Assembly (NCBI GenBank): GCA_963740905.1
Contig: CAVUFY010000013.1
Span: forward strand, 264,147-328,146
Reading direction: 5' to 3'
Length of the DNA stretch: 64,000 nt
From: an uncultured delta proteobacterium
Lineage (GTDB): Bacteria > Desulfobacterota > DSM-4660 > Desulfatiglandales > HGW-15
This document shows positions 3,082-57,134 of this stretch, piece by piece. The notes beneath the pieces are model-generated. The model was given only the letters and a program-made list of their open reading frames with translations. It searched no databases and was not told where the DNA came from. Both the position numbers and the translations under genes were made by a program. Within the stretch, counting starts at the first letter, position 1. The number at the start of each line of letters is the position of its first letter.

Positions 3082-4475
3082 AGTTGAACAGGGCCAGAAT
3101 CGCTGGAATACTGGCCGGCCAGGAGATAGGAGCCCGTGTCACAGTAGCGGGATGGGTCAGGACCAAGCGAGAATCCAAAGGAGGCTTCACCTTCATCGAA
3201 CTCAACGACGGCTCCTGTTTGAGCAATCTCCAGGTGATAGCCGACGAGCGGCTGCAAAACTACCGTTACAAGATGCTCAAGGTGCAGACGGGCAGTGCAC
3301 TTCGCGTGTCGGGAACCCTGGTGGCCTCTCCCGGCAAAGGACAAGCGGTGGAACTCCGTGCAGAAGATGTGGAGGTCCTGGGAGGAGCCGATCCTGATGC
3401 CTATCCTCTTCAAAAGAAGCGCCATTCCTTTGAGTTCCTTCGAACCATCGCCCACCTCAGACCCAGGACCAATACTTTCGGGGCAGTGGCAAGGGTCAGG
3501 AATGCCATGAGCTTCGCCGTCCACCGGTTCTTCCAAGAGAGGAATTTCATCTTCATTCACACACCGATCATCACCGGGAGCGATTGCGAAGGAGCCGGAG
3601 CCATGTTCAAGGTCACAACCCTGGATTTGGAACGGATTCCTTTGGCCCAGGGTCGTCCGGATTTTTCCAAGGATTTCTTCAACACCGCTGCCAACCTGAC
3701 GGTCAGCGGTCAGCTTGAGGCTGAGGTGTACGCTCTGGCTCTGGGTGACGTTTACACTTTCGGTCCTACTTTCAGGGCGGAGAATTCTAACACTCCGAGA
3801 CACCTTGCCGAATTCTGGATGGTGGAGCCCGAGATGGCTTTCTGCGACCTGGACGACAACGCAGCGCTTGCCGTGGACTTCCTGGAGTATGTCTTTTCTT
3901 ATGTCCTGGAGCACTGCAAAGAGGACATGTATTTTTTCAGACGCTTCATCGATCCTACTTGCGTGGAGACGCTGGAAAAGCTGATATCCCAGGGCTTTGA
4001 ACGGATCACCTACACCGAGGCTGTTCAGCTTCTTTCCAAAGCGAAGGAGTCTTTTGAGTTTCCCGTCTCCTGGGGTAGCGACCTGCAGGCTGAACATGAG
4101 AGGTATCTATGTGAGAAGGTGTTTCAGAGGCCCGTCGTGCTCACCGATTATCCCAAAACCATCAAACCCTTTTATATGAAATTAAACAACGACGGCAAGA
4201 CCGTTCGCGCCGTGGATGTGCTGGTGCCTAAGATTGGAGAGATCATAGGCGGCAGCCAGCGTGAGGACGACTACGATACCCTTGTAGAGAGGATGAAAGA
4301 GCTCAATATTAATCCGGAGCCTTACTGGTGGTACTTGGAATTGAGGAAGTTCGGTTCGGCGCCCCATTCGGGCTTCGGTCTTGGGTTTGAAAGGCTTATC
4401 CAGTTCGTTACCGGCATCGCTAACATCCGTGATGTGATCCCCTTTCCGAGAACACCGGGGAACGTGAGTTTCTGA
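3078..4475 (+). CDS. asnS: Asparaginyl-tRNA synthetase
   Basis: Class IIb aaRS motifs [24 protein letters not shown] and GFGLGFERL. The TTG start overlaps the serC TGA stop (TTGA). Confidence 0.93.
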
Positions 4476-4503
4476 CGCCCGTCGTGGACGGCAACGATGC
4501 TCC

Positions 4504-5507: not shown

Positions 5508-5737
5508 TCGTCACCCCAAGCCTGCTCCGTTTCCCAAACCGAAAACTCATCTGTAGCAACCGGATGTTGTTCATACCCCCGACGATGCTTTCGTTCCAGT
5601 TGCTCAAGGTTATAACGCGCAATGGCGTCACGGAGTGCCTTTCTTGCGAAAGCAGAACGGCTTGTGGATAGTTCCTTGGAAACGCGGTCGACCGCTTTCA
5701 CAAGGTCATCATCAAGGGTCATCTGGATGGTTCTCAT
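5504..5737 (-). CDS. Type II antitoxin, ribbon-helix-helix (CopG/MazE-like)
   Basis: MRTIQMTLDDDLVKAVDRVSKELSTSRSAFARKALRDAI is an RHH N-terminus. The start was chosen at MRTIQ; the ORF extends to 5752. Confidence 0.75.
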   Translation of the reverse strand: MRTIQMTLDDDLVKAVDRVSKELSTSRSAFARKALRDAIARYNLEQLERKHRRGYEQHPVATDEFSVWETEQAWGDE

Positions 5738-6057: not shown

Positions 6058-7800
6058 ATGGATAAGATACTTCGCGTCGATATGGGTGCGGAAGGCGGCC
6101 CCAAGGCAAAGGCCGTGGATGTTGGCGCCTATGCGGGCCTGGGTGGGCGAGCTCTCACCTCCGCTATCGTTTCCAAAGAAGTGCCTCCCCTGTGTCATCC
6201 TCTGGGCGAAGGAAACAAGCTGGTTATTGCTCCGGGGCTCTTAAGCGGCACAACCGCCGCCATGTCGGGCCGTCTCTCGGTGGGCTGCAAGAGCCCACTC
6301 ACCGGCGGAATCAAGGAGGCTAACGCAGGAGGCCAACCGTCGCAGATGCTTGCCAGACTGGGGTATGCGGCTATTGTTCTGGAAGGAAAACCGAAAGACG
6401 ACACCCTTTACAAGATACTCATTAACAAGGACGGCGCAAAAATCATTCCGGATAAGAGCCTCAGGATGCTGGGTAACTATGATCTGGTGGAAAGGTTAAA
6501 AAAGGAATACGGGGACAAAGTGGGTATCATTTCAATTGGGCCTGCCGGTGAAATGAAGATGTCAGCGGCTTCCATCGCTTGCACGGATATGGAAATGCGG
6601 CCCACCAGACACGCGGGACGAGGGGGCGTAGGAGCCGTCATGGGTGCCAAGCATGTAAAGGCCATCATCCTTGACGACACGGGCATGAAGATGCGTTCCC
6701 CTAAGGATCCCGAGACGTTCAAAGACGCCAGCAAGAAATGGGTGGAAGGACTCCGCAAGCACCCCGTAACGGGGCAGGGTCTGCCCGCTTACGGCACCAA
6801 TGTGCTCACCAACGTCATCAATGAGGCAGGCGGCTATCCGACCCATAACTTCATGTGGGGCCGTTTCGAGGGATGCTCCAAGATCAGCGGGGAGACGCAG
6901 GCTGAGACGGAAAATGCAAGGGGCGGCGAAGGTTCCGCGACCCACGGCTGCCACCGCGGCTGTATCATCCGCTGCTCGGGCACATTCTATGATAAGGACG
7001 GTCACTACATGACCAAGCAGCCTGAATACGAGACCGTGTGGGCTCACGGCGGCAACTGCGGGATTGATGATCTTGACGCCATTGCCACGTTGGATCGCAT
7101 GGATGACGATTTCGGACTTGACACCATTGAGATGGGCGCCACCATCGCCGTGGCAATGGATGCGGGACTGGCCAAGTTCGGAGATGCACAGGCTGCCATT
7201 AATCTACTCAAAGAGGTGGGCAAGGGAAGTCCGCTCGGTCGTATTCTGGGTAACGGCGCAGCGGTCACGGGCAGAGTGTTCGGGGTGGAAAGAGTCCCCG
7301 TGGTCAAGGGACAATCCATGCCCGCTTACGATCCCCGGGCCGTCCAGGGTATCGGCGTCACTTATGCTACGAGCCCGATGGGTGCCGATCATACCGCCGG
7401 TTACGCGGTGGCAACCAACATCCTGGGAGTGGGCGGCAAGGTTGACCCGTTGAAACCCGAGGGCCAGGCCGAGTTGTCGAGAAACCTGCAGATCGCCACG
7501 GCCGCTATCGATTCTACAGGCATGTGCCTGTTCATCGCCTTTGCGGTAATGGACCAGCCCGAAACCTTTCAGGCTTTGATTGATCTGATCAATTCTTTCT
7601 ACGGTCTCAAGCTGGCTGCGGAGGATGTGACCGCGCTTGGGAAGTCCGTACTGAAAAATGAGAGGGATTTCAACAAGCGGGCCGGTCTCACTGATGAGCA
7701 GGACCGGTTGCCCGAGTTCTTCAAAAAAGAGGCTCTGTCTCCTCATAACATCACCTTCACGGTAACAGACAAGGATCTGGATTCCGTTTTCAACTGGTAA
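6058..7800 (+). CDS. aor: Tungsten-type aldehyde:ferredoxin oxidoreductase (AOR family), copy 1
   Basis: MDKILRVDMG...GLGGRALTSAIV...LVIAPGLLSGT... and C-terminal AOR domains. AAGGAGG lies 6 nt upstream of the ATG at 6058. Confidence 0.92.
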   Translation: MDKILRVDMGAEGGPKAKAVDVGAYAGLGGRALTSAIVSKEVPPLCHPLGEGNKLVIAPGLLSGTTAAMSGRLSVGCKSPLTGGIKEANAGGQPSQMLARLGYAAIVLEGKPKDDTLYKILINKDGAKIIPDKSLRMLGNYDLVERLKKEYGDKVGIISIGPAGEMKMSAASIACTDMEMRPTRHAGRGGVGAVMGAKHVKAIILDDTGMKMRSPKDPETFKDASKKWVEGLRKHPVTGQGLPAYGTNVLTNVINEAGGYPTHNFMWGRFEGCSKISGETQAETENARGGEGSATHGCHRGCIIRCSGTFYDKDGHYMTKQPEYETVWAHGGNCGIDDLDAIATLDRMDDDFGLDTIEMGATIAVAMDAGLAKFGDAQAAINLLKEVGKGSPLGRILGNGAAVTGRVFGVERVPVVKGQSMPAYDPRAVQGIGVTYATSPMGADHTAGYAVATNILGVGGKVDPLKPEGQAELSRNLQIATAAIDSTGMCLFIAFAVMDQPETFQALIDLINSFYGLKLAAEDVTALGKSVLKNERDFNKRAGLTDEQDRLPEFFKKEALSPHNITFTVTDKDLDSVFNW

Positions 7801-19144: not shown

Positions 19145-19412
19145 TTGGTCGTGCTAGACGGGGAGCCAGCGGTGCCCTGTAACCCGAAAACCGCTTACGC
19201 GGGGTCGAAAGTCCTTGTTGAGAGCCGCGCGTCGGTTCTGCCCCTTGTCGCCTCTCGCAAAGGGTGGACCTCACGTGACAGACGGTTACAAACCCCGTCA
19301 GGTCCGGGAGGAAGCAGCGGTAAGTAATGCGGTCTGTGTCGTGATGAAACCTACCCGTTTCGGAGGTGTTGAAGACAGGCCGGTGCGAGTTCGAAGGAGG
19401 ATGCACGACCAA
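19145..19412 (+). ncRNA. ffs: Signal recognition particle RNA, long (Alu-domain, Bacillus-type) form
   Basis: The 5' end GGTCGTGCTAGACGGGGAGCCAGCGGTGCCCTGTAACC closely resembles the 5' Alu domain of B. subtilis scRNA as I recall it. The S-domain core GTCAGGTCCGGGAGGAAGCAGC is present. The 3' GCACGACCAA pairs with the 5' TTGGTCGTGC. Confidence 0.85.
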
Positions 19413-20277: not shown

Positions 20278-20645
20278 AATCTTGACCTGCGATTTCTTCG
20301 CAAGCTGCGGAGAAGTTCTGCAGGGGAATAGTTCCGACGAGTCCGGAACCGAAAATGGACCGCCCATTTAATCGCCCCAGGGTACTTAATCTTCTTCTGG
20401 GTAGGCGCTATCCAAGCCAACCGGAGAGGTTATCCTGTGGGGCTACCTCCATAGAGTTTTCGGCGCCGTTTCAGGTCACGGGAGAAAGGTGCGGCTCTGA
20501 GAGACCCCCCGGGGCTTGGCCGCACGGGGTTTGGTTGCGGTCGAATGCCTGCATTGGGGTACGGACCTTAAATTCCAACAGTTGACAAAGGAACGAAAAA
20601 ACATATTATGTGACAACGTCGATTTTTCACGCGGAGGAAAGAGCC

Positions 20646-20810
20646 ATGCCCACGTACGATTTCAGGTGCGAGAAATGCAACCGCAGGTTTACTCTCATCC
20701 TCTCCATCTCAGAGTACGAAAAGACAAAGTTTCGGTGTCCGAAATGCAAGAGCACGAAGGTGAAGCAGGAAATCTCGCCGTTTCAGGTCAAAACATCCAA
20801 GAAGAGCTGA
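20646..20810 (+). CDS. FmdB-family zinc-ribbon putative regulatory protein
   Basis: MPTYDFRCEKCNRRFT...FRCPKCKSTKVKQ. TTGACA-17-ATTATG lies upstream at about 20581. Confidence 0.75.
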   Translation: MPTYDFRCEKCNRRFTLILSISEYEKTKFRCPKCKSTKVKQEISPFQVKTSKKS

Positions 20811-48511: not shown

Positions 48512-49042
48512 CTATTCTCCTTCAACCTTCAGTTCTTTCAGCTTCGAAAAAACAGATTGTCCGTCCTGGCGACTGCAGAGGCACGGGGCAATGTTAAGAT
48601 TAGTCCCGCATTTCGGGCACAGGCCCCGGCAACCGCTCTTACAGACGCACTTCATGGGTACAGAGAGATAAATTTGCTCTCGGATGATCTCAGCTAGATC
48701 TATCGTTTCCCCTTTGATGAAGTCAACCTCCATTTCTTCATCAAGCAGTTCCACATCCTCCTCACCAGCTGCAGCCGTCTTCCTGACCAGGTAGACGTTC
48801 AATTTGGTTTTCAACTCCGAGTCGAAAGCTTCGAGACATCGATCACATCGGACTCGCAAGCGCCCGGAGAGGGTGCCATCGACCAGGAATTTGTCCGCTG
48901 CTTTGGAGACCTTGATGTAGACCTCCAGAGGTCCATTGAGTCCGACAACTTGTTGGCTGGGATCGCTGGCACGCCACCATTCCTGAGGCAGAGTCTCATC
49001 GAAATGAGTTTCCTCGGCAATGGTTTGAAGGTTGATAATCAC
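48512..49042 (-). CDS. yceD: YceD/DUF177 family protein
   Basis: Position upstream of rpmF, and C-terminal CKSGCRGLCPKCGTNLN...C.C. Confidence 0.85.
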   Translation of the reverse strand: MIINLQTIAEETHFDETLPQEWWRASDPSQQVVGLNGPLEVYIKVSKAADKFLVDGTLSGRLRVRCDRCLEAFDSELKTKLNVYLVRKTAAAGEEDVELLDEEMEVDFIKGETIDLAEIIREQIYLSVPMKCVCKSGCRGLCPKCGTNLNIAPCLCSRQDGQSVFSKLKELKVEGE

Positions 49043-52592: not shown

Positions 52593-53207
52593 ATGGCTAT
52601 TTTTAATGCAAAGGATAGAATCATTGAGTGTAAGCTCGTTTATTACGGTCCGGGCCGTGGTGGAAAGACAACCAATTTGGACTATATCTTCAAGGCCTTC
52701 AACAAGAACACTTCAGCGGAAATGGTGTCCATCAATACCATGGGCGATCGGACCCTGTTTTTTGATTTTCTGCCTATGGGTTTGGGGAAAATTCGGGGCT
52801 GCGAAGTAAAGATCCAACTCTATACCGTGCCCGGTCAGGCGAGATATCGCTCCACGAGAAAAATGGTGCTTAAGGGAGTAGATGGGGTGGTCTTCGTAGC
52901 GGATTCTCTTGAGGTTCGAAGGAAAGCGAATATTCTGTCGCTCAAGGATCTTGCCGAAAACCTTAAGGAGGAAGGGAAGAGCATCTTTCAGATTCCGCTC
53001 GTTCTCCAGTACAATAAGAGAGACTTAAAGGACCAAGGGATCCCCCTTTTGCCTGAGAAACTCATGGATGTGGACCTCAACAGCAAGTTGAAAGCGCCCT
53101 ATTTTAGCGCAAGCGCTCTCAAAGGGCCGGGTGTGGGAGCAACCTTGAAACAGGCTTTGCTTCTCACGTTGCGCCAGCTCCAAAAAGAACTGCAGTGGAC
53201 GAGGTAA
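52593..53207 (+). CDS. mglA: MglA-family Ras-like small GTPase
   Basis: ECKLVYYGPGRGGKTTNLDYI...GDRTLFFDFLP...IQLYTVPGQARY...LKGVDGVVFVADS...QYNKRDL aligns along its length with M. xanthus MglA as I recall it. Confidence 0.88.
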   Translation: MAIFNAKDRIIECKLVYYGPGRGGKTTNLDYIFKAFNKNTSAEMVSINTMGDRTLFFDFLPMGLGKIRGCEVKIQLYTVPGQARYRSTRKMVLKGVDGVVFVADSLEVRRKANILSLKDLAENLKEEGKSIFQIPLVLQYNKRDLKDQGIPLLPEKLMDVDLNSKLKAPYFSASALKGPGVGATLKQALLLTLRQLQKELQWTR

Positions 53208-53217
53208 GGATTTCAGG

Positions 53218-54399
53218 ATGAGTGGAAAAGTTGTACTCACGGGCGGACTGAAGTTCACGAGTCTCGCAGACCTCTTTCAAATCATCGGCGGCAACAACAG
53301 TACCGGTACTCTCCGTATCAGCAGTCAGTATACCCCTGACACAGGGATCATCAACTTCCAGGATGGAAATCCCATCAATGCGATCGATGGCAATCTGAAG
53401 GGGCTGGAAGCCATTTACTCTCTGTTTGGAAGAACCGAAGGAAATTTCGAATTCGTTGAGGAAAAGGTTCCCGTCGAACACGTGGTCAAGAAGAGCCGCA
53501 TGGAAATCGTCCTGGATGCTTTACGCATGCTCGATGATGGCGTCATCAAGAAAGTGGAGCCTCTTTCCACGCAGGAGATTTTTGTCGGGAAACCCGCAAA
53601 GCCGGAAGAACAGCAAAAAGCCGGACCTCCTGCCATCAAAGGGCCTGCCATTGATTATCTTTATATCCTGGAAGAGGAAGAGTTTTACGACGGCAAGACC
53701 ATCGTTAAGGAGGGAACGCATGGCAAATGGATCTGGGTCTTGCTCGAGGGCAAGGTCAAGATCAGCAAGAATACCCAGAGAGGGCCTTTGACCATTCTCC
53801 ACCTTGGCGAGGGATGTTACGTCGGGACCTTTACCTCCCTTTTGTTTCATGATTATGCACGAAGCGCCACGGTCACGGCGGTGGGCGACGTCCGGCTGGG
53901 TTTGCTTGACACACAGAGACTTGCAGGAGAATTCTACACCCTGTCTCCTGAATTCAGAGGAATGTTGGCCAGTCTTGACCGCCGGCTGAAAAAGACAACG
54001 GAAAGAGTCGCCGAGCTGGCGATGAAACAACAAGGGTTCGCAGTACCTCAAAAAGGATTGGAGGTCCTGATCCCGATGGGCTCCAAAAGAGACAACGCAT
54101 ACCTGATCTCGGAAGGGAACGCTTACGTGATAGGAAAAACACAGAAGGGGCTTCTCCCTTTGGTGGAATTGGGGAAGGATGATCTTTTCGGATCAGTCCC
54201 TTTCATGGACATGGGCCAGGAGCCACGTTCCGCTTCCGTGGCGGCTCCAAAAGACTTGAAAGTTCAGAAACTCAACGTCGTCGAACTCCGGGACGCTTAC
54301 AATCAGCTTTCCATGGTTTTCAAAGGCATGATCTCCAACATTTGCACCTGTGTCGCCTACACGACCAAACTCGCATACCTTCTCGGCCGCAAAAAATGA
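53218..54399 (+). CDS. DUF4388 (PATAN-type) domain protein with two cyclic-nucleotide-binding-like domains
   Basis: N-terminus LADLFQIIGGNNSTGTLRIS...INFQDGNPINAI...GLEAIYSLFGRTEGNFEF (DUF4388). Then EGTHGKWIWVLLEGKV...ARSATVTAV and ...PRSASVAAP (CAP-type cNMP-binding signatures). Confidence 0.8.
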   Translation: MSGKVVLTGGLKFTSLADLFQIIGGNNSTGTLRISSQYTPDTGIINFQDGNPINAIDGNLKGLEAIYSLFGRTEGNFEFVEEKVPVEHVVKKSRMEIVLDALRMLDDGVIKKVEPLSTQEIFVGKPAKPEEQQKAGPPAIKGPAIDYLYILEEEEFYDGKTIVKEGTHGKWIWVLLEGKVKISKNTQRGPLTILHLGEGCYVGTFTSLLFHDYARSATVTAVGDVRLGLLDTQRLAGEFYTLSPEFRGMLASLDRRLKKTTERVAELAMKQQGFAVPQKGLEVLIPMGSKRDNAYLISEGNAYVIGKTQKGLLPLVELGKDDLFGSVPFMDMGQEPRSASVAAPKDLKVQKLNVVELRDAYNQLSMVFKGMISNICTCVAYTTKLAYLLGRKK

Positions 54400-54438: not shown

Positions 54439-55002
54439 ATGATCGGGAAGAAGATGGAAGAAGCCCTTAACGAGCAGGTCAACAAAGAAATTTATTCGGC
54501 CTATCTGTACGTGTCCATGTCCGCTCAAAGCGATTCCATGGGACTGAAGGGTTTTGCAAACTGGTTCATGGTCCAGTACCACGAAGAAATGCTTCATGCC
54601 ATGAAGATTTACGAGTACATACACCGGCAGGGCGGAAAGATAAAACTGATGAACATTAAAGAACCTCCCTCGCGGTTTGATTCGCCCCTTGACATGTTCG
54701 AGAAGACACTGGCCCACGAAAGGTCTGTGACGAAATCAATCAATGGCCTCGTCGATCTGGCCATCGCAGAAAAGGATCATGCCACCCAAATTTTTCTCCA
54801 GTGGTATGTGACGGAACAAATCGAGGAAGAAGAAAATGACAACGACATCATCGCCAAGCTGAAACTGGTCGGGACAGGAAGCGAGAATAACAATGGTCTG
54901 TTCTTGCTCGATAAGGAACTCGGAACTCGCCTCACCACTGTTCTCACCGATTTCAGCAAGGGAATCGAGGCCGGCATGAAGGCCGCAGCAGCAGTTCCCT
55001 AA
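54439..55002 (+). CDS. ftn: Non-heme ferritin
   Basis: LNEQVNKEIYSAYLYVSMS...FMVQYHEEMLHAMKIYEYI...ALAHERSVT... are the ferroxidase-centre residues. Confidence 0.9.
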   Translation: MIGKKMEEALNEQVNKEIYSAYLYVSMSAQSDSMGLKGFANWFMVQYHEEMLHAMKIYEYIHRQGGKIKLMNIKEPPSRFDSPLDMFEKTLAHERSVTKSINGLVDLAIAEKDHATQIFLQWYVTEQIEEEENDNDIIAKLKLVGTGSENNNGLFLLDKELGTRLTTVLTDFSKGIEAGMKAAAAVP

Positions 55003-55030
55003 AGGGTCTCCCTGCGTCCAATCATGACCA

Positions 55031-55058
55031 AGCAGGCCGGCCGAGGCCTGCTTTTTTT
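55031..55058 (+). terminator. Rho-independent terminator after ferritin
   Basis: AGCAGGCC-GGCCGA-GGCCTGCT followed by TTTTTTT. Confidence 0.8.
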
Positions 55059-55099
55059 GTCAAAACTTGGCTTTCCTCCTTTCTTCTGAGTTCCACCAA

Positions 55100-55226
55100 A
55101 TCGATTTAAATATACACTATGTAGTATTATTGCTTATTTTGAAATACTATATATTTCAATTATATATAATTAATTTCAATATAGATAAAAATGCTTGACA
55201 AATATAAATATATAGATATTATATAG
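55100..55226. other. Strikingly AT-rich island with reiterated ATTTCAAT / ATATA elements
   Basis: tttaaatatacactatgtagtattattgcttattttgaaatactatatatttcaattatatataattaatttcaatatagataaaaatgc... contrasts by eye with the GC-rich flanks. Confidence 0.7.
55195..55223 (+). promoter_or_regulatory. Near-consensus sigma70 promoter
   Basis: TTGACA (55195-55200), a 16-17 nt spacer, then TATTAT / ATTATA. An AT-rich, UP-element-like tract lies upstream. Confidence 0.5.
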
Positions 55227-55229
55227 GCC

Positions 55230-55485
55230 AATCTGTTCGGCGCCGTTGGACTATCAGAAAGCCATAAACGATCTTCTCGGGTGAGCGTGCATCTTTTTTG
55301 CTGGGAGTCTTATCTTATAACTTTAAAGAAGATTATCGCTGGCAAAAACAACGGCACTCTGGGAAGGCGTGGGAGGATGGAGTTGTTGGATAGGAGAAGC
55401 CTGAATTGAGATTTGGCCCGTGGACAGCTGATTTTTGAACCAACCCTCCATTCTAAGCAGAGCCACTAGTGGCTCTGCTTTTTTT
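55230..55485 (+). ncRNA. Candidate novel small RNA (about 255 nt), family not recognised
   Basis: It is bounded by its own promoter (55195) and its own strong terminator (55457-55485), with ferritin already terminated upstream. It has no SD-preceded ORF. Long-range complementarities are visible: GGCCAATCT / AGATTTGGCC, GCCGTTG / CAACGGC, ATGGAG / CTCCAT. Confidence 0.45.
55457..55485 (+). terminator. Rho-independent terminator of the sRNA candidate
   Basis: GCAGAGCCAC-TA-GTGGCTCTGC followed by TTTTTTT. Confidence 0.85.
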
Positions 55486-55703
55486 GTTCCTGCCTTTCCT
55501 CTCCGCTGTCTGCCTCTCAGAACCTTGTCTCTCTCGTCTGCCTGTGCTAAGACTTTACGTGTTTCGTGACCTCACGAATTTCCCGGGCAGTTCCCATGTC
55601 CGGCCCGGGCTGGCACAAGGTTTGGCAGGACTTCACGCTGCGTTTTACTTATCTAGTCGGATCGTGAGGGCGAGTGAATATTTTCGGAGGCTCGAGAATT
55701 GCA

Positions 55704-57134
55704 ATGACCATGGATAAGGTTGTCACTCGCTTTCCGCCCAGTCCCACGGGCTATCTTCACATCGGCGGAGCGAGGACCGCTCTGTACAACTGGCTCTTTG
55801 CGAGGCAGAAAAAAGGAAAGTTTATCCTCAGAATTGAGGACACAGACAAGGAAAGATCAACAGACGAAGCGACGAGGACCATAGTCGAGTCCCTTCAATG
55901 GCTCGGCATCGACTGGGACGAGGGCCCGTACTTTCAATCCCGGAGATACCCGATTCACTGGGATGCGGTGGCGCGACTCCTGGCAACGGGAAAGGCCTAT
56001 TACTGCCATTGTTCTCCTGAAGATCTTGAAACAAGACGAAAGGAAGCCATGGCAAGGGGCTTGAAACCAAAGTATGACGGCAGGTGCCGCGACAAGGGGC
56101 TAGGAGCCGATCCTCACGCAGTGGTCAGACTGAAATCCCCTCAAACTGGAAAGACTTTCTTCCACGACCTCATCAAGGGGCCTATCTCCTTTGACAATGA
56201 GGAACTCGACGATCTGGTCCTCTGGCGTTCGGACGGGACTCCCACCTATCATCTCGCCGTGGTAGCCGATGATATTGCTATGGGCATCACGTATATCATC
56301 CGGGGAGACGATCATGTCAACAACACACCTCGCCAGATGCTGATCTATCAGGCCCTTGGAGAGCCTTTGCCTCTGTACGCTCATGTTCCCATGATTCTTG
56401 GTCCTGACAGAACAAGGCTCAGCAAACGCCATGGCGCCGCGTCTGTCCTTGCTTATAGGGACATGGGCTACTTGCCCCAAGCCTTGGTCAATGCCCTGGC
56501 TAGAGTCGGCTGGTCTTACGGTAATCAGGAAAAATTCGATCTCGCCGAGCTGATCGAGAAGTTCTCCCTGGAAAATGTGGGCAAATCCGCAGGCATCTTC
56601 AACACGGAAAAGCTTCTGGATCTGAATGCACAGTATATCCGCGAGTCGGAGAGCGAGGCATTAGCTCGCGAACTCATCCCTTTTCTTGAAAAGCAGGGTC
56701 TAGCAAACCTCGATCGCGGCCGGGTCGGAGCCGCGGTGGAGACCCTGAAGCCGCGAAGTAAGACACTGGTCGAGATGGCTGAGAAAGCGTGTTTTTACTT
56801 CGTCGAGGATGTGGTCTACGACCCTGCTGCGGCCAAAAAATTCCTCAAATCCGACGCCCTGGACCTCATGAAAGATATTCTTGACCACATCAGGGTTATG
56901 ACCGATTTCACCCGAAGAGATATGGAGAAAATATTTTCGGATTTCATCGAAGAAAAGGGGATCAAGCTCGGCCAGATTGCCCAGCCTCTCAGGGTGGCTC
57001 TCACAGGAACGAGTGTAAGCCCCGGCCTTTTTGAAGTTATGGAAGTCCTCGGCCGCAGGAAGGTGATGGAAAGAATCGAGAAGGCCTTGGCTTGCATTGC
57101 TGAGGATCATCGTCCTGGTGAACAACAAACTTGA
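55704..57134 (+). CDS. gltX: Glutamyl-tRNA synthetase
   Basis: RFPPSPTGYLHIGGARTALYNWLFA (HIGH) and RLSKRHG (KMSKS). The start is at 55704 or 55710. Confidence 0.93.
   Translation: MTMDKVVTRFPPSPTGYLHIGGARTALYNWLFARQKKGKFILRIEDTDKERSTDEATRTIVESLQWLGIDWDEGPYFQSRRYPIHWDAVARLLATGKAYYCHCSPEDLETRRKEAMARGLKPKYDGRCRDKGLGADPHAVVRLKSPQTGKTFFHDLIKGPISFDNEELDDLVLWRSDGTPTYHLAVVADDIAMGITYIIRGDDHVNNTPRQMLIYQALGEPLPLYAHVPMILGPDRTRLSKRHGAASVLAYRDMGYLPQALVNALARVGWSYGNQEKFDLAELIEKFSLENVGKSAGIFNTEKLLDLNAQYIRESESEALARELIPFLEKQGLANLDRGRVGAAVETLKPRSKTLVEMAEKACFYFVEDVVYDPAAAKKFLKSDALDLMKDILDHIRVMTDFTRRDMEKIFSDFIEEKGIKLGQIAQPLRVALTGTSVSPGLFEVMEVLGRRKVMERIEKALACIAEDHRPGEQQT

Follow-up and report, generated by a model that had tools for sequence, protein, structure and literature searches.

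The window analyzed here is a 64,000-nucleotide stretch of DNA from an uncultured delta proteobacterium (contig CAVUFY010000013.1), and our subject is the interval in it that separates a ferritin gene from gltX, the gene for glutamyl-tRNA synthetase. An earlier reading made from the letters alone (hereafter, the sequence-only reading) had proposed that this interval specifies an independently transcribed RNA of about 255 nt. We find that the interval is, with high probability, an independent structured small RNA (sRNA) gene and that a ~100-nt rod-like hairpin at its center, which we call H and which the sequence-only reading had not singled out, defines a large RNA family absent from Rfam 15.

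The ferritin open reading frame (ORF; 54439–55002, PF00210) has a terminator of its own, with a stem at 55030–55053 followed by a T-run. Downstream of it, on the same (+) strand as all the features of the RNA described below, lies an AT-rich tract at 55100–55194. The GC content at 55100–55199 is 17%, and the minimum value for a 100-nt segment is 14% compared to 52% across the window; in the whole 64 kb, 100-nt segments with a GC content of 20% or less are only those starting at 55081–55141. The tract contains reiterated ATTTCAAT and ATATA elements (repeat family D1), a perfect palindrome, AATTATATATAATT, at 55158–55171, and an A-tract, ATAAAAAT, which abuts the −35 element of a σ70-type promoter and makes the region look like an UP-like element. 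A regulator may bind the palindrome, which does not correspond to an Escherichia coli–type Fur box. The promoter occupies 55195–55222, with TTGACA at 55195–55200, a 16-nt spacer, and TATTAT at 55217–55222. An intrinsic terminator, AAGCAGAGCCAC-UAGU-GUGGCUCUGCUU followed by a U-run, is located at 55455–55485; its stem (55455–55480) has 11 counted pairs and flanking A-U pairs (11 to 13 bp in all) and a 4-nt loop, and the T-run extends to position 55485. The gltX gene (PF00749) starts at ~55704 on the same strand as the RNA. The ferritin terminator, the AT-rich stretch with its repeats, the promoter, the GC-rich hairpin, the start of gltX beyond it, and the lack of any ORF with a usable Shine-Dalgarno (SD) sequence, the sole notable frame being a 42-codon one that opens with GTG at 55281–55409, had all been described in the sequence-only reading, and all of them were borne out by our analysis.

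The promoter matches the consensus at 11 of 12 positions. Since the window contains three σ70 matches of at least 11/12 where a first-order Markov model predicts 0.25, the source organism seems to make real use of consensus promoters. The other two such matches are found at 20582–20609 (+), upstream of a small Cys-rich ORF starting at 20647, and at ~49132–49105 (−), upstream of a minus-strand ORF starting near 49030. From the promoter spacing, transcription of the sRNA likely starts at 55227–55230, and the predicted product is a stand-alone RNA of ~257 nt (roughly 55228–55485), which is probably strongly expressed. It would consist of a variable 5′ leader (55228–55268), the H core (55269–55370), a 3′ domain (55371–55454) that includes an anti-SD–like block, AACCCUCC, at 55442–55449 just 5′ of the terminator, and the terminator itself.

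Relatives of the locus were found via a GltX scan of a genome collection, in which the window groups with Desulfatiglandales-like Thermodesulfobacteriota metagenome-assembled genomes. In the closest loci, L001, L002, and L003, GltX is 78 to 73% identical to that of the window; L120, L124, and L181 are metagenome orthologs. All six retain the promoter, the AT tract, the RNA core, and the terminator. The element CTTGACAAAT is invariant in them, and the palindrome and A-tract recur in the orthologs as AATTATGCATAATT ... ATAAAAAT(G/A)CTTGACAAAT. The palindrome, AATTAT(AT/GC)ATAATT, lies ~60 nt 5′ of the start and is also present at the equivalent site in L001, L002, L120, and L124. The terminator, GCAGAGCC...GGCUCUGC, is invariant among five orthologs. 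The leader is 40 nt long in the window and L001, where only its last ~17 nt (AAAGCCATAAACGATCT) are common to both, and ~110 to 150 nt in L002 and L003; the RNA is accordingly ~255 nt long in the window and L001, ~325 nt in L002, and ~365 nt in L003. The spacer between the terminator and gltX is ~100 to ~550 nt long and unalignable. Thus, conservation begins at the promoter and ends at the terminator in several genomes, as is expected for a self-contained RNA gene. Overall, the interval has its own promoter, its own intrinsic terminator, a conserved unit between them, and no conserved ORF.

The gene 5′ of the sRNA is ferritin in the window and L002 and an opposite-strand cytidylate-kinase-like gene in L003; ferritin is not the neighbor in L124 either. 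On the other side, the RNA is located directly upstream of gltX, on the same strand, in the window, L001, L002, L003, and L124. A conserved upstream gene pair comprising a small Ras/Arf-like GTPase and then a DUF4388 and cNMP-binding protein (window, 52593–54399; L002, 2144–3319; L003, 1047–2867) is syntenic with the sRNA-gltX region in the relatives. Tandem repeats of ~20 nt (GCGCCTTCACGCTGTGT...) are present directly after the sRNA terminator in L002 (5453–5530) and absent from the window.

The most conserved block of the RNA reads CUUCUCGGNUGNNCGUGCAUCUUUU ... AACGGC ... GGGAAG and belongs to H, in which covarying stems enclose the near-invariant internal-loop strands CGUGCAUCUUUU and AAUAACGGCAU. 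In the window, helix P1 is formed by 55271–55279 with 55360–55368 (family form, GGCUUCUCG with CNGGGAAGCC) and is separated by a one-base bulge from helix P1b, in which 55280–55283 pairs with 55355–55358 (family form, GAUG with CAUC). The 5′ loop strand, AGCGUGCAUC (55284–55293), then faces the 3′ loop strand, AACAACGG (55347–55354). The inner part comprises a Y-G pair and a bulged purine followed by CGU paired with ACG, and an asymmetric loop with GCAUC opposite UA; the loop segment reads CGUGCAUC. Helix P2 pairs a U-run with an A-run and continues into a distal stem of very variable length, which is nearly absent in L085, L168, L173, and L176. We define the family by the P1/P1b rod, the YNCGUGCAUCUUUU and AAUAACGGCAY strands, and the U-run/A-run P2.

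On the family alignments, RNAalifold with default settings predicts a local hairpin only, and the rod was therefore drawn by hand and then tested. In 84 MAFFT-aligned sequences, 87% of the cells of the hand-specified rod are paired, compared to 46 to 62% in slid controls. A covariance model, R1, was built from this alignment. When the rod was assessed on 101 matches aligned with R1, 89.5% of cells were paired, compared to 39 to 63% in slid controls; 14 pairs showed compensatory changes, and 0 of 500 shuffles reached the observed values on any of five measures. The H fold is thus supported by covariation. In 87 of 99 sequences, one pair of H is formed by U and G, and G-C and G-U interchange at several other pairs; since G-U pairs would become A-C mismatches on the other strand, H is an RNA read on this strand. 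The window (55269–55370) matches R1 over the full model length with 77.7 bits (E = 3e−18), a match that is partly by construction because the window is in the seed alignment. Independent matches were obtained at L168 7347–7445 (76 bits) and L091 4398–4491 (45 bits), and these divergent copies, found by R1 only, keep CGUGCAU(C/U)UU and AACGGCAU.

Neither the RNA of the window nor other members of the family matched described RNAs in the searches made here. Rfam 15 (4227 models) was run on the whole window at gathering thresholds and on 54950–55750 at E ≤ 10. There was no match at the locus by gathering threshold, and only two chance-level, opposite-strand matches appeared at E ≤ 10. This agrees with the earlier statement that the RNA is not 6S RNA, transfer-messenger RNA, ribonuclease P RNA, a T-box, or a common riboswitch. 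The sole Rfam family in the window is a bacterial large signal recognition particle RNA (RF01854, 124.5 bits) at 19149–19408 (+). Searches of the literature by keyword, and of full texts for the conserved strands, returned no published description of H. There is no H copy in the viral contig collection, and a phage origin was rejected on the same result.

To delimit the family, metagenomes were scanned with the exact pattern TCTCGGNTGNNCGTGCATCTTT, which returned at least 120 stretches. Although the 3′ strand is not in the query, 119 of the 120 among the matches listed carry AAUAACGGCAY-NNN-GGGAAGCC after 0 to 90 nt. The family thus has at least 119 members in at least 111 distinct sequence contexts, with H being 54 to 127 nt long among the matches listed; two contigs have two copies each. 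The Desulfatiglandales-like affiliation applies to the window’s own relatives, and the other members are stretches of sediment metagenomes. R1 detected no further copy in the window or at 76 other gltX loci (825 kb in total).

Members of the family are preceded by promoters of different classes. Among the matches listed, a σ54-type element (TGGCAY-N5-TTGCW) ends ~17 to 27 nt 5′ of H at 32 of 111 loci and a σ28-type element (TAAAG-N15-GCCGATAA) 7 to 8 nt 5′ of H at 6 of 111, both as consensus matches; the position of the former places H within ~10 to 20 nt of the start site. The window group has a σ70 promoter with a 40-nt leader. An intrinsic terminator follows within 140 nt of H at 57 of the 111 loci listed, and within 15 nt at 30 of them, so that about half of these loci look as expected for sRNAs, and many members consist of H plus a terminator alone behind their own promoter. 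A (G)GCAGRG(U/C)C...G(R)CYCUGC(C) stem is found in the terminators of many unrelated members (e.g., window 55455–55480, L084, L102, L110, L125, L148, and L195), and since this stem is common to otherwise diverged members, the terminator sequence itself seems to be conserved.

At 15 of the 111 loci among the matches listed, H is followed within 95 nt by an SD and an ORF with no terminator between them; H does not cover the SD. Small hydrophobic ORFs of 33 to 51 codons with a good SD start at +25 after H, including ones that begin MLW..., in L093, L099, L103, L119, L123, L128, L159, L165, and L199 and at +17 in L142 and L178; their products (MLWTTIAAGL..., MFKILLVIAV...) look like small membrane proteins or like peptides of the type I toxin kind. 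DUF5658 proteins (MNQIYM...SGKDRR...) are encoded ~62 nt after H in L100, L117, L129, L153, and L191, with a common upstream block, GGATTTGGAATTGAATTGTTC. The H-led ORFs also include a PilZ protein. In L196, H (537–650) has a σ28-like promoter and is followed by a c-di-GMP-I riboswitch (679–768; RF01051, 64.9 bits), a terminator-like hairpin, and an 866-amino acid ORF, forming a tandem leader; this riboswitch was the sole Rfam match on 20 other family loci.

In about a third of the members, a second structured element, U, of ~105 nt is present ~12 nt upstream of H (31 of 111 among the matches listed; 42 of 118 by a looser first match), and the promoter, σ54 or σ70, lies further upstream. Examples are L093 1774–1880 (−), L110 765–876, L168 3793–3902 (−), and L102 741–850 (−), with ~30 other loci. 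U reads GUGCCACC-C-AACUUC-AACAC...AACC-AUGNGAY-GGCC(loop)GGCC-UCCAAA-GGUU...GGAGUU-UGA-GGUGGCAC. Its closing helix, GUGCCACC/GGUGGCAC, covaries, with compensatory changes in 6 of 10 pairs, and the segments AACUUCAACAC and CCAAAGGUUA are conserved. A hand-drawn four-helix model of U has 87.8% of cells paired, compared to 30 to 52% in slid controls. U gave no Rfam match at the 20 member loci or in an E-value scan of L110 700–1050. The window RNA is without U.

A long form of the RNA, in which H is followed by an additional 3′ block, is found in the window, L001–L003, L120, L124, and L181, all with σ70 promoters, and in L195, L144, and L137, with σ54 promoters (TTGGCAAGGCTCTTGCA). The block consists of CCCG, ~25 nt, CYAACC(C/U)UCCWUY, and then the GCAGAGYC terminator. 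Two helices enclose its CCCG...~25-nt part. The outer one, GGAUGGAG (55375–55382) with CUCCAUUC (55446–55453), is limited to the window, L001, and L124. In the inner one, GUUGG (55385–55389) pairs with CCAAC (55440–55444), and the GYYGG/CYAAC pairing is predicted by RNAalifold in all five orthologs. The sequence-only reading had listed three long-range complementarities. All three exist in the window, but only the outer helix recurs, in L001 and L124; the partners in 55226–55234/55409–55418 and 55242–55248/55349–55355 are lost in both of these genomes.

Conservation of CYAACC(C/U)UCCWU covers the window, L001, L002, L003, and L124 as well as the σ54 sister RNAs L195, L144, and L137. In L002, L003, and the σ54 group, the intramolecular partner is not kept and AACCCUCC is, which suggests that the sequence itself is under selection. 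AACCCUCC is complementary to the SD sequence GGAGGGUU and may be the seed of the sRNA, a possibility about which we remain somewhat doubtful. Among the 190 initiation regions of the window, the best predicted seed duplex, −22.1 kcal/mol, is formed with the aldehyde:ferredoxin oxidoreductase gene at 6058, compared to minima of −17.9 ± 1.6 kcal/mol for shuffled seeds; we treat this gene as a lead only. C-rich or anti-SD sRNAs are known from Firmicutes (RsaE/RoxS) and Alphaproteobacteria (CCUCCUCCC “cuckoo” RNAs). Like them, the window RNA has a conserved C/U-rich, SD-complementary block near the terminator; unlike them, it has one block, which is predicted to be partly paired internally, and it has no Rfam match.

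That hairpin-only RNAs and the leaders of unrelated genes contain the same loop is most simply explained by one shared factor. The RNA likely acts in trans, and H could quite possibly be a protein handle, although we hold this tentatively. The joint reading that we favor, and to which we would give somewhat less than an even chance, is that of a trans-acting sRNA with H as a handle for a shared factor and AACCCUCC as an anti-SD seed. One common cellular factor, most likely an RNA-binding protein whose gene lies elsewhere, would recognize H as a sequence-specific handle; RNAs consisting of H plus a terminator would be decoys or carriers made under many different signals, and RNAs or mRNAs bearing H would be clients of the same factor. 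In the long form, AACCCUCC would pair with SD regions of target mRNAs and thereby repress translation. The closest known logic is that of the GlmY/GlmZ-RapZ system of Enterobacteria. There, homologous sRNAs expressed from σ54 and/or σ70 promoters share a stem-loop bound by one protein, and one paralog base-pairs with mRNA while the other is a decoy. The resemblance is one of logic: H has no sequence or structure similarity to these RNAs and no Rfam match, its paralogs are many more, and it is also found in mRNA leaders.

Several observations weigh against this account. Because the search pattern prescribed the 5′ strand of H, the invariance of this strand across the family is in part built in. 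Folded as a single sequence, the RNA shows no significant gain in stability over shuffles (z = −1.3), and neither strand is significant, so that the support for H is comparative, not thermodynamic. The AACCCUCC block is predicted to be internally paired in the window, L001, and L124, which fits a structural role as well as that of a seed. The mean energy of the seed with the initiation regions of the window is unexceptional, equaled by 13% of shuffled seeds, with no general enrichment; any CCUCC pairs with any strong SD, and target prediction is therefore little specific. When 77 upstream and 89 downstream neighbors were assigned to Pfam families, no family recurred beyond 3 to 5 loci and none pointed to a partner protein. 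There is also room for a role in cis, since the RNA adjoins gltX in at least five genomes even though the gene on its other side varies. Last, we infer the ends of the transcript from sequence.

Among other accounts, H may be the ligand-sensing aptamer of a new riboswitch class or a self-cleaving ribozyme, which we consider unlikely. Near-invariant nucleotides in internal loops between covarying stems are the usual appearance of aptamers and ribozymes, H is found in 5′ leaders at 15 loci among the matches listed, and a competing local hairpin, GGAUGY-NCGU-GCAUCU, is possible. The succession of H and the c-di-GMP-I riboswitch in L196 is also of note, as tandems are known for riboswitches. However, no coupling between a terminator and an antiterminator was detected, the SD lies outside H in the ORF-linked cases, many members are H and a terminator only, with nothing for a switch to control, and the downstream genes have no common metabolic theme. 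The neighbors of H, among the matches listed, are on the same or the opposite strand in 42 and 35 cases upstream and in 52 and 37 cases downstream; ~40% (37/89) of the downstream genes are thus on the opposite strand. A generic riboswitch is disfavored on this ground, by the position of the SD in the ORF-linked members, and by the 30 members with a terminator within 15 nt and no alternative pairing detected.

The constant position upstream of gltX would also suit a different function, that of a cis-acting leader or attenuator in which read-through of the terminator at 55455 controls glutamyl-tRNA synthetase. Besides the adjacency, which persists in the window, L001, L002, L003, and L124 despite the changing neighbor on the other side, this account is helped by the lack of a σ70-like promoter matching at least 9/12 between the terminator and gltX in the window. 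Yet the terminator is strong, with 11 to 13 bp and a U-run, and the spacer behind it is unconserved in sequence and length. The L001–L003 spacers share a weak promoter-like block, CAATCTTGTG(C/A)-17 nt-TA(G/A)A.T (i.e., TTGTG(C/A)-17-TA...), at ~625–655, ~5560–5595, and 4448–4476, respectively; this block, less distinct in the window, is a candidate promoter of gltX. Among the matches listed, tRNA synthetases make up only 3 of 89 downstream neighbors, and the 76 other gltX loci are blank for R1. Pairing of H with the 5′ arm of the terminator has a predicted energy of −6.6 kcal/mol for the cognate pair, −7.0 for non-cognate pairs, and −6.5 for shuffled ones. An antiterminator formed by the 5′ half of H with the terminator 5′ arm was therefore rejected as no better than controls. 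T-box leaders (RF00230) likewise are 250- to 300-nt RNAs that end in a terminator and precede, in the same orientation, a gene for a tRNA synthetase; the sRNA differs in having no T-box match at E ≤ 10, no antiterminator alternative, a terminator 100 to 550 nt from gltX, and a family not linked to synthetases. Overall, we find control of gltX in cis improbable.

We regard with similar skepticism the idea that H itself base-pairs, its strands GUGCAUCUUUU (the complement of AAAAGAUGCAC) and AAUAACGGCAU opening onto one conserved target RNA. The conserved strands are identical across paralogs with different promoters, and the complement of the 5′ strand contains AUG preceded by A’s. The model for such a function is Qrr1–5 of Vibrio, ~100-nt Hfq-dependent RNAs in which the conserved segment is an unpaired seed. 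The paralogs of H resemble them in sharing an identical segment, in their many σ54-type promoters (the 32 of 111 among the matches listed), and in their intrinsic terminators. In H, by contrast, the conserved segment forms a closed rod. Its two strands are base-paired or lie within a stable structure that compensatory changes maintain, the loop leaves only about 5 + 2 nt unpaired, and no target was identified. The window copy has, in addition, a σ70 promoter.

An RNA of the 6S type, binding RNA polymerase by mimicry of promoter DNA, would also be rod-like with an internal loop or bubble and abundant, as the sRNA, from its promoter, probably is, and the ends of E. coli 6S RNA share CGGCAUCUCGG (an 11-mer) and UCUC..GAUGU with some H members (e.g., L003 and L092). 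This resemblance of the closing stems is at chance level. The Rfam 6S model (RF00013) gave no match at gathering thresholds or E ≤ 10, and R1 gave none on E. coli ssrS. H is about half as long (~100 nt versus ~185 nt) and has no 6S-type central bubble. The distal stem is dispensable; where it is nearly absent, as in the four loci named above, the “bubble” becomes a terminal loop. Many paralogs per community, with at least two on a single contig, also disagree with 6S RNA, and we consider this identity very improbable.

That the interval encodes a small protein is scarcely credible, even though the 55281–55409 frame is open, a 45-codon frame is present in the same register in L001, and GGGAGGAUG at 55371–55379 resembles an SD followed by a start codon: the GTG frame, with no SD before it, stops after 10 to 14 codons in L002, L003, and L124; the short AUG frame after GGGAGG has 10, 19, 6, and 6 codons in the window, L001, L124, and L120 and is absent in L002 and L003; the lengths of H differ by non-multiples of three; and substitutions track base-pairing, not codon position. 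Coding potential was rejected since the frames are not conserved, and no conserved small protein, a finding that would have told against the sequence-only reading, was identified.

Two known types of sRNA were rejected as well. A Fur-repressed, RyhB-like sRNA was considered because ferritin adjoins the RNA; ferritin is not a constant neighbor, and the best Fur-box scores in the five orthologous promoters, 11 to 13 of 19, are no better than those of shuffles, for a consensus that is that of E. coli and may not be the host’s. A CsrA sponge of the CsrB/RsmZ type would expose many GGA motifs in hairpin loops; the GGA of H (CGGAUG) is inside helix P1b and is replaced by GGG in about a third of sequences (A:54, G:27 of 84), and neither L002 nor L003 retains the GGA-rich stretch at 55371–55399.

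In anoxic sediments, Desulfobacterota contribute greatly to sulfur and carbon cycling, and to our knowledge almost nothing is known of RNA-based regulation in them. A broader proposal, which we consider rather doubtful, is that H and U are modules of an unrecognized post-transcriptional network in anaerobic sediment Desulfobacterota or, alternatively, that H represents a new ribozyme or aptamer class. In such a network, one factor, a protein or a small ligand, would recognize the invariant loop of H; dozens of H-only sRNAs, with their own σ54, σ28, or σ70 promoters, would titrate or deliver it; and its clients would be mRNAs for small membrane proteins, DUF5658 proteins, PilZ, and one gene behind a c-di-GMP riboswitch. 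If true, the network would resemble the Csr or Glm systems while relying on an altogether new RNA fold and on a partner that is likewise new.

Promoters of three classes precede members of the family, of which the window copy is a clean example. R1 provides a defined covariance model for annotating such genomes, and the H loop can be used as a bait for the binding factor. If H is a handle common to decoys and clients, the factor that binds it would be a global regulator in a phylum in which no classical sRNA-protein circuit is known to have been mapped.

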